This document shows, piece by piece, positions 15,201-28,136 of a stretch of DNA of 28,136 bases. The stretch comes from a virus (taxonomy: Duplodnaviria > Caudoviricetes). The notes under the pieces were generated by a model. It was given only the letters and a program-made list of their open reading frames with translations, was not told the origin of the DNA and ran no database searches. The stretch spans positions 1-28,136 of IMG/VR virus record IMGVR_UViG_3300005805_000357; one strand, written 5' to 3'. A program made the translations under genes and the position numbers. Every line of letters starts with the position of its first letter. The first letter of the stretch is position 1.

Positions 15201-16280
15201 ATGTCAACAGCTAGCTACGCTAATAGTGCTTTTGAAGCTGCCAATTCAGCTGGTAGCTACGCTAATAGTGCATTCATTACTGCTAATACTGCTAATGCAG
15301 CTATTAATACTAAAACAACAATCAATGCATTAAACTTTCTTTCAGCTCCATCTTCTAATACATTAAACACGGTATTTCTAGTTGTTGACCTGCAAACAGG
15401 AACACCAACAACTAGAAAAATGTCATTGTCAGTTTTGTCAGAAAGATCAGCAAACTTTGCATTTGAAGCCGCTAATAGTGCTGGGTCATATGCGAACGCA
15501 GCCTTTGCTGCCGCTAATAGTGCATCTGGTGCAGCAGCTGCCAGTTCATATGCTAACTCAGCCTTTGTTGCCGCTAACAGTGCTGGTTCATACGCCAATT
15601 CAGCCTTTGTTCATGCGAATGCAGCATTTGATGCCGCTAATAGTTCTAGTGGTGCAGCAGCTGCCAGTTCATACGCTAACTCAGCCTTTGTTGCAGCTAA
15701 TAGTGCTGGTTCATATGCCAACTCAGCTTTTGTTGCAGCTAACAGTGCTGGTTCTTATGCTAACGCAGCTTTTATCGCAGCTAACGCTGCTACAGATACA
15801 GATGCAACACAGAACAACAGCATAACAGCATCCTTTATTCATGCTAACTCTGGTTTTAATTTTGCTAACGTAGCTGCAAACCTTGCATTATCATTTGGTG
15901 CTACAACAATATTGGAAGTAACAAACAACGGAGCTGCTGCTTATAGATTTAGCCAATATGGTGTATTAGATAATCCTAATGTATCTACCTTTAGTGCTAC
16001 AACTTTAGGTTTTAAATTAAATGTTACTGGTCATCCATTTCACATTAGATTAGGTGATAATTCTACTGATTTTGATACAGGATTGGTACATGTTTCACCC
16101 ACAGGAACACTATCTTATGATTCAGCTGCACAAGGTCAAGTAAGTGGAACATTGTTTTGGAGAATACCACATACTTCTGTTGGTAATTATAAGTATCGTT
16201 GTTCTATTCATACAGCTGCAATGCTTGGTGAAATTAATGTTGCTAACACAGCAGGTATTTACCTTGCTTATAACACTTAA
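15201..16280 (+). CDS. Fibre-like virion protein: ANSA-heptad stalk plus C-terminal cupredoxin-like domain
   Basis: Repeated ANSAGSY/ANSAFVA heptads, then GHPFHIR...YKYRCSIHTAAMLGEINV (His...Cys-x2-His-x3-Met). Confidence 0.7.
   Translation: MSTASYANSAFEAANSAGSYANSAFITANTANAAINTKTTINALNFLSAPSSNTLNTVFLVVDLQTGTPTTRKMSLSVLSERSANFAFEAANSAGSYANAAFAAANSASGAAAASSYANSAFVAANSAGSYANSAFVHANAAFDAANSSSGAAAASSYANSAFVAANSAGSYANSAFVAANSAGSYANAAFIAANAATDTDATQNNSITASFIHANSGFNFANVAANLALSFGATTILEVTNNGAAAYRFSQYGVLDNPNVSTFSATTLGFKLNVTGHPFHIRLGDNSTDFDTGLVHVSPTGTLSYDSAAQGQVSGTLFWRIPHTSVGNYKYRCSIHTAAMLGEINVANTAGIYLAYNT
15210..15790 (+). repeat. Intragenic tandem repeats (21/42-nt units; 123-nt duplication)
   Basis: GGTGCAGCAGCTGCCAGTTCATA(T/C)GCTAACTCAGCCTTTGTTGC occurs at 15528 and 15651; many GCTAA(T/C)AGTGC units. 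Confidence 0.9.
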
Positions 16281-23804: not shown

Positions 23805-24041
23805 ATGTTCGCAAAAGTAAAAGACCATGATAATTTAGTTAGAGATATGAACTCCAAGGCTGTTCTAAATACAGACAGAGCTGGCCTTCAAGAGTATTAT
23901 CAAAAAAGAGATAGTGCGAAAAAAGAGCAATCTGAGAAAATAGAAACTAAACAACGCATTGACAAAATAGAAAAAGATATGTCTGAAATAAAAGAACTAT
24001 TGTATGAGATTGCTAAAAAAGGTGTAAACAATGGCAATTAA
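23805..24041 (+). CDS. Small coiled-coil protein following the DUF4815 gene
   Basis: KVKDHDNLVRDMNSKAVLNTD then a heptad-rich C-terminus (RIDKIEKDMSEIKELL). Confidence 0.75.
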   Translation: MFAKVKDHDNLVRDMNSKAVLNTDRAGLQEYYQKRDSAKKEQSEKIETKQRIDKIEKDMSEIKELLYEIAKKGVNNGN

Positions 24042-24405
24042 TCAGCTAACCACAGCAAACACTTTTGAGCAGTGGTTAAGTGCTACTCAAAATCTAATTG
24101 CTACAGCCAACACTCTTACCGATGGTAATGGTGCTACATTTGTTGCAAACACGAAACTTGATGTTTCTGGCACAGGTTCCACACTCAATGTTCGTACATC
24201 AGGTTCTATCAATGTTCTATATTCAAATACTTCGTTTTTAACAACTTCTAACATAACTACTTTAAATTATACAACAGCAAATGGAAACACGATTACCGCT
24301 ATGGATATAACAGCGACAAATTCAGCAAATATTCAACTAATTACCGGTCAAGCCGTGCAACAAATAAATGATGCAGCTGTTGCATTTTCAATTGCTTTGG
24401 GTTGA
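24031..24405 (+). CDS. Short fibre/stalk protein with C-terminal hydrophobic motif (AAVAFSIALG)
   Basis: N-terminal T.NTFEQW attachment-like motif, Asn/Thr-rich beta repeats; AGGTG SD upstream. Confidence 0.7.
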   Translation: MAINQLTTANTFEQWLSATQNLIATANTLTDGNGATFVANTKLDVSGTGSTLNVRTSGSINVLYSNTSFLTTSNITTLNYTTANGNTITAMDITATNSANIQLITGQAVQQINDAAVAFSIALG

Positions 24406-24412
24406 TATAACA

Positions 24413-24420
24413 GATAAATA
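24413..24420 (+). promoter_or_regulatory. Late promoter variant GATAAATA
   Basis: 7/8 match in the intergenic gap, followed by AGGA SD and ATG 24447. Confidence 0.6.
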
Positions 24421-24446
24421 GACAATAGATAATAGGAACTAATTAA

Positions 24447-24773
24447 ATGGCTAACACCTTCAAGAATTATTTTTTAAAGAACGCAACAACCACAGCGGCT
24501 AATGCATACGTTACTCCTGCGGCAACACAAGCAACAATTATTGGCATGACAATTGGCAACACAACATTGTCTCCAATTAGTGCAAATGTGACCGTGGTAT
24601 CAGGCGGAACAACATACTTTATGGTACAAAATGCAACTATTTCTAACGGTGGTGCATTAGTACCAGTTGGCGGAGACCAAAAACTCGTTATGGAAGCTGG
24701 TGATTATATGCAGGTACAAACTTCTGCTACTAACTCAGCCGATGTAATTGTATCAGTCCTGGAGATTGCATAA
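24447..24773 (+). CDS. Small beta-rich virion protein (putative adaptor, 'MANTFK' type)
   Basis: 108 aa; YVTPAATQATIIGMTIGN...KLVMEAGD...VSVLEIA; paralogous to 25469 and 27006. Confidence 0.75.
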   Translation: MANTFKNYFLKNATTTAANAYVTPAATQATIIGMTIGNTTLSPISANVTVVSGGTTYFMVQNATISNGGALVPVGGDQKLVMEAGDYMQVQTSATNSADVIVSVLEIA

Positions 24774-24774
24774 C

Positions 24775-25467
24775 ATGTCATATATCGGTAACGAACCAGG
24801 AGTAACAAACTTTATATTTGGAGTTGACCGATTTAATGGTACCGGCGCTTGTACTCAATTTACACTAACCAGAACAACTGATGATGCAAACACAGTAGAA
24901 GTTTTGGTCAATAGTATTCAACAAGATCCAATTAATTCATATTCGGTTTCAGGTGGTGTAATTACATTCACTGAAGCACCATCATCTGGTGCTAATAATA
25001 TTGTTGTTGTTTATCGTGCAACATCGGTTATATCATTTACTAATGTTGGAACAGCACAGATTGTAGATGGTGCAGTAACTTCATCAAAATTAGCATCAGG
25101 TGTTATTCCTTCTACGGTAGCGGTTTTTAATACTGCTAATGCAGCATTCTTACAAGCAAATACTCCTAGTCATGTTGCCAACTCAGCAGCAATCTATGCA
25201 AACGGTGCCTTTACAGCTGCTAATGCTGCTTCACTAACTAATGTAACACAAAACAATAGTATTACGGTTGCATTGAACACAGCTAACGCTGCTTTTGCTC
25301 AAGCCAACACAGACTTTACGACAATAACAGCAACAGCTGCAACATATGGAAATGCAATATCAATTCCATCAATAACACTTACTGCAAACGGCCGTGTTAG
25401 TGCAATCAGTAACACAGCAATCGTTATTGACCCAATACCAAATATTTTAATGTTATCAGGAATGTAA
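24775..25467 (+). CDS. Fibre/stalk protein (small beta-sandwich, DGAVT.KL shaft motif, AN heptads, hydrophobic C-terminus)
   Basis: Start placed at ATG 24775 (MSYIGNEP) after GGAG, rather than the track's 24748. FNGTG..TQFTL...ITFTEAPSSG domain; ends IPNILMLSGM. Confidence 0.75.
   Translation: MSYIGNEPGVTNFIFGVDRFNGTGACTQFTLTRTTDDANTVEVLVNSIQQDPINSYSVSGGVITFTEAPSSGANNIVVVYRATSVISFTNVGTAQIVDGAVTSSKLASGVIPSTVAVFNTANAAFLQANTPSHVANSAAIYANGAFTAANAASLTNVTQNNSITVALNTANAAFAQANTDFTTITATAATYGNAISIPSITLTANGRVSAISNTAIVIDPIPNILMLSGM
25175..25265 (+). repeat. 91-nt dispersed repeat, copy 1
   Basis: TTGCCAACTCAGCAGCAATCTATGC...; 81/91 identical to 26771-26861 by hand alignment. Confidence 0.9.
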
Positions 25468-25468
25468 A

Positions 25469-25807
25469 ATGCCAAATGCTTATAAAAGATTAGGGGCTAT
25501 CAACCCAAGTGCAAACACACAAACGAACGTATATGTTATACCAGCTGCAACACAATCGGTAATTTCAACAATTACTATTTGTAACCAATCTGCTAGTAAT
25601 GCTTCATATAGTTTAGCTTTAATGAATAATTCGGAGTTTGCTTCTCCTGCTGGAGCTGCGACTTTCTTGGTTCGTGGTGCAATTGTACCTGCTGCAGATT
25701 CTATTATTTTGACAATTGGACTAACTGCAAATGCTGGTATGGTTTTAGCAGCTAATACTAATTTAGGTAATCTTTCATTTGCAGCTTTTGGTACGGAAAT
25801 AACCTAA
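25469..25807 (+). CDS. Small beta-rich virion protein (putative adaptor, 'MP.AYK.LG' type)
   Basis: 112 aa; YVIPAATQSVISTITICNQ...LTIGLT...SFAAFGTEIT. Confidence 0.75.
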   Translation: MPNAYKRLGAINPSANTQTNVYVIPAATQSVISTITICNQSASNASYSLALMNNSEFASPAGAATFLVRGAIVPAADSIILTIGLTANAGMVLAANTNLGNLSFAAFGTEIT

Positions 25808-25808
25808 T

Positions 25809-26612
25809 ATGGCAATTAGAAAAACTTCTGATATCACCTTTTCGTCTGTAAACAGGAAAGGTGTTAGACCTGCAGGATATGCTTTTCCTATTGGATTAAA
25901 TACGGCTGTAAATACTTTAAGCATAGACTATTTAATATTAGCTGGAGGTGGAGGCGGCGGACAAAACGTTGGTGGATATAGAGGTGGTGGTGGAGGTGCA
26001 GGTGGTTATTTAACTGGTAGCACAACCGCAAATTCGGCCACATCTTACTCATTTACCATTGGTGCAGGTGGAGGAACTAATAGTAATGGTAGTAATTCTA
26101 CAGGTTTAGGTCTAACTGCTATCGGTGGTGGAGGAGGTGGATATCACGATGGTATAGCAATTGATAACTCTGGTGGTCGTTCTGGAGGTTCAGGCGGTGG
26201 CGGAGGTGGCGCAGGCGGTGGAGGTTCTCCTGGAGGAGCAGGAACAGCAGGACAAGGAAATAATGGAGCCGGAGGCGGAACTTTTGCTGGTGGAGCAGGA
26301 GGTGGAGCTGGCGGAACTCCAACTGGTGCATCTTCTAGCATTTCAGGTTCTTCAGTTACGAGAGCGGTTGGTGGTGGCACAGATACAGGAACATCAATTG
26401 CGGCAAATAGTGGCGGTGGTGGAACAGGATCTGGTGACACTGGAAACGGACAGCCAGGTCCAACAGGGGGAGGATCTGGTGTCATAATTGTTAGATATTC
26501 TGGTTCACAGCAAGCAACAGGCGGCACTATCACATCATCAAGCGGTAACACAATTCACACCTTTACAGGTTCTGGTACATTTCAACCATCTGGAATTTTT
26601 CTAATCAATTAA
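25809..26612 (+). CDS. Glycine-rich domain protein (putative fibre tip / receptor-binding)
   Basis: DYLILAGGGGGG..GGGGGAGGY..G, Y.FTIGAGG, GGSGVIIVRY, HTFTGSGTF. Confidence 0.8.
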   Translation: MAIRKTSDITFSSVNRKGVRPAGYAFPIGLNTAVNTLSIDYLILAGGGGGGQNVGGYRGGGGGAGGYLTGSTTANSATSYSFTIGAGGGTNSNGSNSTGLGLTAIGGGGGGYHDGIAIDNSGGRSGGSGGGGGGAGGGGSPGGAGTAGQGNNGAGGGTFAGGAGGGAGGTPTGASSSISGSSVTRAVGGGTDTGTSIAANSGGGGTGSGDTGNGQPGPTGGGSGVIIVRYSGSQQATGGTITSSSGNTIHTFTGSGTFQPSGIFLIN

Positions 26613-26617
26613 ACCAG

Positions 26618-26625
26618 CATAAATA
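26618..26625 (+). promoter_or_regulatory. Late promoter variant CATAAATA
   Basis: 7/8 match in the intergenic gap before ORF 26653. Confidence 0.55.
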
Positions 26626-26652
26626 TTGTAACATCAATAAGAGAACAGACAA

Positions 26653-27000
26653 ATGCCATTAAATAGAATAACAGCAGATTCAATCACAGACGGCACCATT
26701 GTTGCTGCCGATGTGGCCGATGGTACTATTACCTTAGCAAAATTAGTTAGTGGTCTGTTACCACCAGCAATTGCCAACTCAGCAGCAATCTATGCGAACG
26801 GTGCATTTACATCTGCTAATGCTGCTTCACTAACAAATATCACACAGAACAACAGCATCACAGCTGCATTCACAGCAGCAAACACACCAAGTGCCACAGC
26901 AAACTCAGCAGCAATCTATGCAAATGGCGCATTCACAACAGCAAACTCAGCAGCATCAACAGGCAAAGCTATTGCCATGTCAATAGTATTCGGGGGATAA
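26653..27000 (+). CDS. Short stalk protein with AN heptads and C-terminal TGKAIAMSIVFGG motif
   Basis: ITDGTI..ADVADGTITLAKL repeats, ANSAAIYANGAFT twice. Confidence 0.75.
   Translation: MPLNRITADSITDGTIVAADVADGTITLAKLVSGLLPPAIANSAAIYANGAFTSANAASLTNITQNNSITAAFTAANTPSATANSAAIYANGAFTTANSAASTGKAIAMSIVFGG
26771..26861 (+). repeat. 91-nt dispersed repeat, copy 2 (partial third copy at about 26902-26937)
   Basis: See copy 1; ACACAGAACAACAGCAT is also shared with 15807. Confidence 0.9.
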
Positions 27001-27005
27001 TTTAA

Positions 27006-27380
27006 ATGGCACAGCCAAACATTGTAAGTGTAACAACAATTCGTGGTAATACTGCCGTTGCAGCTGTTACGAATGTATCATCAAACCTTGTCGTAAACTC
27101 TGTTAATAGTGGACAGGTTCTGAAACTTAATGCACTGTATATTTCTAATATTCATGCAACAGGAAATACAGCATTAGTGACGGCTGCATTGTTACGAAGT
27201 GGCGTTTCATATGAAATAGCACACAATATTGCTGTATCAGGTAACACAACATTGGATGTTATTAGTAAGTCCATATACTTGGAAGAGGGTGATTGTTTGA
27301 GAGTTTCAGCAAATACAACATTTTCAGCAAACGCTAATAATCTTTGTGAAGCTGTTTGCTCTTATGAGGCTATATCGTAA
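27006..27380 (+). CDS. Small beta-rich virion protein (putative adaptor, 'MA.PNIV.VTTI.G' type)
   Basis: 124 aa; KLNALYISNI, IAHNIAV...TLDVISKSIYLEEGD, CSYEAIS. Confidence 0.75.
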   Translation: MAQPNIVSVTTIRGNTAVAAVTNVSSNLVVNSVNSGQVLKLNALYISNIHATGNTALVTAALLRSGVSYEIAHNIAVSGNTTLDVISKSIYLEEGDCLRVSANTTFSANANNLCEAVCSYEAIS

Positions 27381-28136
27381 TGGCCAGAAGTAACAATGGT
27401 TTTATTGGTAAAGCCTTAAACTTAGATTTCGGCACGACTCAAGGATTGTCGTCACTTTCGTCTATTCAACAAAGTAAAGGTGCTGGTTATGTTATAAATT
27501 ATCTTATTGTTGCAGGCGGCGGTGGCGGTGGCTCTAAAAACACCACTGGTGGGGGTGGTGGTGGTGCTGGTGGTTTTGTCTCTGGTATATTAACCGTTTT
27601 TTCAGGCACTTCTTATACAATTACGGTAGGCGCTGGAGGATCAGCTGGCACCGCTGGCGGAACCGGAACAAATGGTTCTACAGGTTCAAACTCTACATTT
27701 TCTAATATTGCAACAGCATTGGGCGGCGGTTTTGGTGGTAATACAACTGGAGGCACTGGTGGTTCTGGCGGAGGTAACGGTGATGCTGGAGCTCCCGGAG
27801 GGGCTGGAACGGTAGGTCAAGGTAACAATGGTGGTATTGGAGCTGGTCAAGTTGCTGGCGGCGGTGGTGGAGCCACCGCTGTTGGTGGTAACGGTGTTAC
27901 CTCAAACCGAGGTGGTGCTGGTGGTGCTGGATTACAAAATTCCATTACTGGCACATTAATTTATTACGCAGGTGGTGGTGGCGCAGGAACTTTAAATGGA
28001 ACAGCAGGCGCAGGCGGTTTAGGTGGCGGTGGAGCAGGTGGTTACACAGGTGCAGGCACGGCGGGAACTGCCAATACAGGTGGCGGTGGTGGTAGTGGCG
28101 GTGCTTGGAACGGGTCGGATGTTCAGGTATTTGCTG
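27380..28136 (+). CDS. Second glycine-rich domain protein, truncated by the window end
   Basis: Not in the track. ATG 27380 overlaps the upstream TAA; MARSNNGFIG...NYLIVAGGGGGG...GGGGAGGF...YTITVGAGG...YYAGGGG...ANTGGGGG. Confidence 0.85.
   Translation, partial: MARSNNGFIGKALNLDFGTTQGLSSLSSIQQSKGAGYVINYLIVAGGGGGGSKNTTGGGGGGAGGFVSGILTVFSGTSYTITVGAGGSAGTAGGTGTNGSTGSNSTFSNIATALGGGFGGNTTGGTGGSGGGNGDAGAPGGAGTVGQGNNGGIGAGQVAGGGGGATAVGGNGVTSNRGGAGGAGLQNSITGTLIYYAGGGGAGTLNGTAGAGGLGGGGAGGYTGAGTAGTANTGGGGGSGGAWNGSDVQVFA

Follow-up and report, generated by a model that had tools for sequence, protein, structure and literature searches.

The 28,136-nucleotide window analysed here, positions 1 to 28,136 of the Caudoviricetes record IMGVR_UViG_3300005805_000357, ends in a run of small fibre-region genes in which each of three stalk proteins finishes in a short hydrophobic tail peptide and is followed by the gene for a small protein, termed adaptor A, B or C. 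The adaptors are paralogues of one predicted jelly-roll family, matched in subtype to the peptides flanking them, and probably act as lasting, two-sided joints in virion fibres. The connector reading draws on the paralogy of the adaptors, the grammar of the gene order, conservation of the tails at the protein level, the joint swapping of tail and adaptor, and gene fusions on both sides of the adaptor; from these we infer binding, orthogonality and the virion location of the adaptors. The feature itself is real, strongly conserved and widespread, and at the level of sequence it is consistent with peptide-docked modular fibres built on an uncharacterised socket family, the interaction being a prediction.

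Adaptor type covaries with the tail of the upstream protein

Loci were collected from five viral-contig scans plus two annotated records (245 loci; three of the scans supplied the best 80 of 390-579 relatives). Among 384 family hits, 279 were distinct: 236 stand-alone adaptors with an upstream gene, 22 second members of a tandem, 11 without an upstream gene, and 10 that were fused or lacked a start. Covariation was counted on the 236 stand-alone adaptors, using a nearest-neighbour rule on the last 14 residues of the upstream gene product. Adaptor type was predicted correctly from the tail in 232/236 cases, and in 230/236 when neighbours with homologous bodies were barred; 2000 label shuffles gave a mean of 73 and a maximum of 102 correct. 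A chance origin of the tail-adaptor match is excluded. The original prediction, made from the letters of the window, had held that each tail type has its own adaptor type and had named covariation across genomes as its main test; that covariation is strongly upheld by these pairs. Counting from the tails gave a similar picture: among 7,662 distinct open reading frame (ORF) ends, those with a tail motif were followed by the cognate adaptor in 59/61 (A), 59/63 (B) and 73/78 (C; three at a contig edge) instances, and a non-cognate adaptor followed in none of the 191 motif-adaptor adjacencies.

Proteins upstream of adaptors range from about 60 to 1800 amino acids (aa), and their common tail is short. 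Conservation is limited to the last 9-12 residues and is 15-40% beyond about 12 residues from the end (tails anchored for this profile: A 70/74, B 38/67, C 71/86). Mean Kyte-Doolittle hydropathy over the last 10 residues is 1.84 for A, 1.04 for B and 1.98 for C, against a background of 0.2. Type-specific residues are kept while their neighbours drift, as with GKAIAM, whose Lys is present in 97% of 71, and with the Pro and Asn of B tails. The tail codons occur in all synonymous forms, and the spacers between tail and adaptor run from 0 to 45 nt; conservation of the tail acts at the protein level. Two features of the initial description need correction. Tails had been called Gly-terminated, which is correct for types A (70/74) and C (72/86) but not for B (4/67), where the last residue is usually M, A or S. 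The cassettes had also been proposed to act "instead of one long fibre", which is too narrow: long fibres of 600-1800 aa finish in these tails as well.

Homologous stalks exchange tail and adaptor jointly. Homologous fibre bodies were found with different tail-plus-adaptor types, including an A versus C case with 52% identity over 546 residues. The N-terminal domain of stalk 2 is common to 47 of the 72 proteins that follow an A adaptor, and the gene after these 47 encodes a B adaptor in 19, a C adaptor in 5 and no adaptor in 20, while 3 are fused to B; of the 20, 18 have no tail and 2 carry a B tail at a contig edge. Across a tree of 42 rows, the next-adaptor state switches no fewer than 10 times. 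The cognate type is also kept where one to three genes have been inserted, in loci L084, L190 (three genes), L142 and L127, with L141 similar; since adjacent genes travel together, such loci are the more telling.

An extra ORF occupies a cassette junction (tail/adaptor or adaptor/next stalk) at L084:4683-5279, L002:6338-6928 and L138:6121-6390, the first of which scans as a GIY-YIG homing endonuclease. In L142 (686-2951), L127 and L141, unannotated genes lie between a Gly-rich B-tail stalk and its adaptor; those of L142 encode 332 aa and about 424 aa, the first without a PHROG match.

The downstream gene is matched to the adaptor as well

Genes beginning M-x-[YF]-[ILV]-G follow adaptor A in 65/71 cases, adaptor B in 0/77 and adaptor C in 4/74. 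A Gly-rich motif is present in the next gene after B (59/77) and C (55/74) and in 7/71 after A. The joint is two-sided, in that the start of the downstream gene also varies with adaptor type. Tips starting R-P-x-G number 40 directly after a B adaptor, 24 further down from one and 1 without a B, a distribution that would fit several branches or tips per socket. In L082, L120 and L050, two or three Gly-rich tips with the common start R-P-x-G-[YF]-x-[YF]-P come after a single B adaptor. Behind the tips, at L082:7340-8161 and L050:6910-7353, lie small conserved genes (phrog_7759, phrog_9114/1787) that may encode tip chaperones.

Several observations weigh against a code of specific, virion-borne joints. 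The genes for tail and adaptor are mostly no more than 45 nt apart, and recombination would move both whether or not their products bind, so the covariation is inflated by tight linkage. The pairs are non-independent, the nearest 80 loci having been sampled per scan, and the tail and start motifs used in the ORF-end counts were derived from the same data. Independent contrasts numbered just four (4/4 concordant, p 0.125), and a second test supplied 1 pair. Exceptions to the grammar also occur: the B adaptors in L120 and L126 are preceded by ..NNLIFIKT, no adaptor comes after one B-tail stalk of L120, type-F adaptors (4 loci) lack a stalk as their immediate upstream neighbour, and 17/65 YIG-starting genes do not follow an adaptor, although 11 of those 17 lie in a locus with an A adaptor. 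In favour of a fibre role, the family member gp27 of phage S-SCSM1 is labelled "virion protein" and sits between two tail-fibre genes, as does the member in P-SSM2. The label itself comes from GenBank annotation; a virion proteome of 45 proteins exists for S-SCSM1. Confirmation of family members by virion proteomics was not found in the accessible portions of PMC9602691, PMC9023294 and PMC12014285.

The linkage is accommodated by a scheme in which the joints are non-orthogonal, any hydrophobic tail fitting any socket, and linked inheritance and co-drift account for the type match. The tails of all main types are indeed short and hydrophobic, and the tail and adaptor genes are adjacent. There is also a precedent in the branched systems of Klebsiella podophages KP32 and K11, which pair a branching domain in one receptor-binding protein (RBP1) with a conserved peptide of another (RBP2): a non-cognate branching domain still docks RBP2, according to the accessible part of PMC13352976, so the orthogonality of the adaptors cannot be assumed. 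Such promiscuity is unlikely here given the complete lack of non-cognate adjacencies among the 191, the retention of type-specific tail residues amid drift, and the presence of up to six family members together in one locus.

Natural fusions join adaptors to stalks, to tips and to each other

Among the best 150 B-like representatives, 98 are single-domain proteins and 31 carry two adaptor domains; an N-terminal stalk-like part is present in 12 and a C-terminal extension in 8, and 1 combines two adaptor domains with a Gly-rich part. Several of the C-terminal extensions are Gly-rich. Stalk-B fusions are also present in the collected loci, and three A-type proteins carry a C-terminal domain, RCC1-like in one. 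Double-adaptor chains account for 32/150 representatives (P0010-P0159), two of them with a long repeat insert inside the first domain. Of nine "longer" A-type proteins, P0002 and P0006 were set aside as probable read-through gene calls, with Q exactly at the tail's stop position, and P0001 and P0003 were left uncounted for their chimeric look. The suggestion that adaptors are connectors gains support from these natural stalk-adaptor, adaptor-tip and adaptor-adaptor fusions; its further elements, cognate binding and orthogonality, keep the standing of predictions.

The fusions also bear on whether the adaptors could be transient assembly chaperones of the Tfa or Pam3 gp25 type, capping the stalk C-terminus during folding and then being released. 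Adaptors do resemble these proteins in being encoded right after the fibre and in varying together with the fibre's end, like the variable N-domain of gp25/Tfa (PMC9608196, part accessible). The class is defined there by an N-terminal beta-sandwich plus a C-terminal helical trimerisation domain, and the all-beta model of adaptor A lacks the latter. Fusion on both sides is predicted for a lasting connector and not for a released chaperone, and Gly-rich and other tip domains are found with the adaptor domain joined at their N-terminus. With the start of the downstream gene covarying too, and with a separate small tail-fibre-assembly PHROG gene present in L120 (1 of 4 such genes scanned), a chaperone role is improbable.

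Adaptors A, B and C are paralogues with a predicted jelly-roll fold

Adaptors A, B and C all match the first ~110 positions of phrog_1276, and a single hidden Markov model (HMM) recovers all three. In hhalign comparisons A-B scored 96.8% and A-C 97.0%, and B-C directly just 9.4%. The small followers are therefore paralogues, as had been proposed; the motif quoted at that time, L.(M/L)E.GD, reads IYLEEGD in adaptor C. In a quick tree of 110 family members, B forms a separate group (support 98), and C (support 97) falls inside the A-type rows on a long branch. Pfam gave no meaningful family for the three adaptors or for 44 family members scanned, ESM Atlas returned solely unnamed "virion structural protein" clusters, and sequence comparison of the adaptors with solved structures gave no match (best E 0.087). 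Further types are D, E, F and G and one in contigs of marine metagenome-assembled genomes (L214:508, L175:3153, L154:8091, L158:402, L258:2297); each of D, E and G comes with an upstream tail of its own.

AlphaFold2 models the 108 residues of adaptor A as nine strands without a helix, at a predicted local distance difference test score (pLDDT) of 95. The model matches predicted viral structures with template-modelling (TM) scores of up to 0.95 (205 matches at E ≤0.001). Its solved fold neighbours are generic single jelly rolls of virions and appendages with tied scores: KHP40 cement (7dou, Z 9.8), nucleoplasmin-like HDT1 (7vrr, 9.2), Ena1 (7a02, 9.2), the HFTV1 turret (8qpg, 9.0) and Ena3A (8pdz, 9.0). 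The fold is shared at a root-mean-square deviation of 2.4-3.0 over 92-101 residues, but identity is 7-13% and the oligomers of these proteins differ among themselves; neither function nor oligomeric state of the adaptor follows from such tied neighbours. Pam3 gp24 is absent among the matches listed in both PDB fold searches, which does not exclude it. A single-sequence fold of a natural stalk-adaptor fusion, from L004, reached pLDDT 36 and was not used.

Sf6/HS1 needle knobs and C1q/TNF proteins are also among the fold neighbours of adaptor A (Z 7.5-7.6 for C1q/TNF, below the best rows), which raises the alternative that the adaptor is a terminal knob, needle-knob or C1q-like, that binds the receptor itself while the downstream genes attach elsewhere. 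One phage record does name a family member "c1q globular head like", and stalk-adaptor fusions end in the adaptor domain. The likeness to C1q/TNF extends to the jelly-roll fold of the model and not to sequence profiles, since 0/44 members match C1q/TNF Pfam families at E 0.01. Type-C adaptors are 72-86% conserved among 80 loci with diverse tips, far above the expectation for a receptor-binding protein; combined with the type-specific N-terminus of the downstream protein and the existence of adaptor-tip fusions, this makes a terminal knob very unlikely.

DNA signals overlap the junctions

At spacers of 12 nt or less the tail Gly codon is GGA in 21/28 (A), 38/53 (B) and 61/73 (C) junctions, compared with 498/2088 elsewhere in the upstream genes, and in tight junctions it probably doubles as a ribosome-binding site. 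ATAAATA, which we take to resemble a T4-type late promoter motif, occurs in 35/44 long spacers before type-A adaptors; its position between stalk 1 and adaptor A in the window suggests extra transcription of the adaptor and following genes. The junctions of the window had been described as mostly 0-5 nt, which fits five of seven (-1 to 5 nt); the other two measure 41 and 40 nt, and each contains ATAAATA. That the tails are by-products of such RNA or DNA signals (a ribosome-binding site or translational coupling) or are degradation tags is scarcely credible and was rejected: the GGA bias is as expected for Shine-Dalgarno overlap, but Gly is kept at spacers of at least 18 nt (A 41/44, B 8/10, C 8/8), and every synonymous codon turns up in the remainder of the motif, observations that largely refute a signal-only origin; neither signal explains the type match.

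The cassettes in the window

The window spans baseplate and fibre genes of a T4-like myovirus and has a gp8 Pfam match, a baseplate-wedge match and a phrog_677 connector; a 1980-aa phrog_358 protein is encoded upstream of the cassettes. All seven ORFs of the original prediction were recovered (Table 1). The three cassettes that it described in a row are present, but the third is not chained to the second, because stalk 3 comes after a tip and not after an adaptor.

Table 1. Coordinates of the fibre cassettes and associated features in the window.
Feature	Positions	Strand	Length	Description
Virion structural protein	23805..24041	+	78 aa	phrog_473; immediately before stalk 1
Stalk 1	24031..24405	+	124 aa	ends ..AAVAFSIALG
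Type-A tail	24373..24402	+		AAVAFSIALG; family motif A-[VL]-A-x-[AS]-I-A-L-G-stop
ATAAATA	24414..24420	+		between stalk 1 and adaptor A
Adaptor A	24447..24773	+	108 aa	predicted single jelly roll
Stalk 2	24775..25467	+	230 aa	ends ..IPNILMLSGM; matches tail-fibre phrog_18673
Type-B tail	25435..25464	+		IPNILMLSGM
Adaptor B	25469..25807	+	112 aa	
Gly-rich tip 1	25809..26612	+	267 aa	PF21722 Gly_rich_2 above cut-off
ATAAATA	26619..26625	+		5' of third cassette
Stalk 3	26653..27000	+	115 aa	satellite stalk; start MPLNRI
Type-C tail	26962..26997	+		GKAIAMSIVFGG; Gly codons overlap likely ribosome-binding site of adaptor C
Adaptor C	27006..27380	+	124 aa	
Gly-rich tip 2	27380..28136	+	at least 252 aa	PF21722; ORF interrupted by window end

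Related T4-like loci have an ORF of 70-76 aa in the slot of the phrog_473 protein. Stalk 1, judged by its position, is likely the virion-anchored first segment. Stalk 2 starts M-S-Y-I-G-N-x-P, as is typical of genes 3' of adaptor A, and has a shared N-terminal domain of ~95 aa and Ala/Asn-rich repeats. Tip 1 is likely receptor-binding. The two tips score 32.5 and 70.6 bits against PF21722 (cut-off 24.3), and tip 2 has no sequence match among solved structures. Stalks 2 and 3 have a 138-nt stretch in common at 80% identity (25175-25312 and 26771-26908). The phrog_677 ORF (baseplate wedge tail-fibre connector, 15201-16280) contains Ala/Asn-rich repeats that are DNA-level kin of those in stalks 2 and 3, and recombination among the three ORFs may be favoured by these related repeats.

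A model for assembly and its relation to known fibres

The stalks are taken to be trimeric, as is established for fibres. In the proposed joint, three stalk chains would bring three hydrophobic tails together, the tails would lie buried within a matching adaptor oligomer, and the following stalk or tip would dock by its N-terminal peptide on another face of that adaptor. The window would then encode a chain from the anchoring stalk 1 through adaptor A, stalk 2 and adaptor B to Gly-rich tip 1, and a side branch from stalk 3 through adaptor C to Gly-rich tip 2, attached possibly at A. Type A would serve as an inner hub, with B and C as outer tip holders, and the different tail and socket types would keep each tip on its own stalk in a phage producing several sets simultaneously. 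Double-domain fusions, tandem B1-B2 genes and the extra late promoter raise the idea that the hub may be a ring of paired domains carrying several different tips on one stalk.

By analogy, the cassette would work like the docking of a conserved peptide on a branching domain in the Klebsiella podophages and like the T-even gp37-gp38 assembly, but it belongs to neither: its socket is a separate gene and its tips lack an N-terminal Trp. The socket of KP32/K11 is presumably a T4 gp10-like branching domain. As in those phages, insofar as the accessible part of PMC13352976 describes them, a short conserved terminal peptide would dock one separately encoded fibre part on another and let modules be swapped. 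There, RBP1 contains the socket and the plug occurs only at the N-terminus; here the socket mostly has a gene of its own (three separate ORFs in the window and the single-domain majority of B-like representatives), is matched on both sides, by the upstream C-terminus and the downstream N-terminus, and exists in at least three main and several minor types. The N-terminal peptide expected on the secondary part is present in sequence after type A, its docking being predicted. No match to the branching-domain family was found in Pfam or PHROGs, and the fold lists do not settle kinship.

In the gp37 trimer and gp38 adhesin of phage S16 (PDB 6F45; PMC6851490, part accessible) a separate polyglycine-rich tip is likewise held on the fibre end by hydrophobic contacts. 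That gp38 makes direct contact with gp37 by way of three tryptophans in an N-terminal bundle of helices, whereas in the cassettes a third protein is encoded between stalk and tip. The window tips have the polyglycine-rich domain (PF21722) and not the N-terminal helical domain with three conserved Trp, and neither contains a Trp in its first 30 residues.

Cyanophage Pam3 offers a further parallel in the accessible part of PMC9608196: gp24 combines a helical shaft, a beta domain and a Gly-rich domain in that order, and gp25 is a small partner encoded beside the fibre. Unlike the cassettes, gp24 is one gene and one chain; gp25 carries a helical C-domain and does not occur in virions. The gp24 TNF-like domain forms the base from which its Gly-rich loops extend, and by analogy its counterpart in the cassettes is more likely the tips' beta part than the adaptor. 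The neck fibre gp82-gp81-gp80 of cyanophage A-1(L), likened here by description, is also strung together from small, separately encoded trimers belonging to a single operon and has a binding module at its distal end; it differs in that one bead protein is repeated about 14 times head to tail, and no tail-peptide code or paralogous sockets are described in the accessible text (PMC10966104). Our literature search, whose coverage of subscription journals and bioRxiv supplements was thin, found no description of the adaptor family as a system, and the accessible parts of PMC7468147, PMC7824862 and PMC13730344 do not describe it.

Distribution and significance

The cassette grammar is present in phages HMO-2011, CRP-9, YerA41, S-TIM54, OC, phiPsal1, Melnitz, P-SSM2 and S-SCSM1. 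Homologues also occur in HTVC010P and PhiW-14, and no family match was found in S-CRM01 (1 of 5 genomes searched). In loci from genome collections, an IALG tail lay directly upstream in 11/14 (first scan hit), with one variant AMILG; one locus had no HMM match. The B-type profile alone recovers 3,900 protein clusters at 50% identity. Tentatively, we extend the connector reading to a widespread jelly-roll hub family that would constitute a peptide address code, in which no fewer than three main and four minor orthogonal tail/socket pairs, together with matching N-terminal plugs, would give branched, many-tipped fibres from interchangeable genes in aquatic myo-, podo- and siphoviruses; this wider proposal is possible, though we would not yet lean on it.

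In the cultured phages HTVC010P, HMO-2011, P-SSM2, S-TIM5, S-SCSM1, Melnitz and YerA41, family members are labelled merely "hypothetical" or "structural". If the proposal is correct, thousands of unnamed genes in host-recognition islands would gain a role and tip shuffling a mechanism, the architecture of a fibre would become readable from the ends of its genes, and natural pairs of a 10-residue peptide and a 110-residue socket would be at hand for protein assembly.

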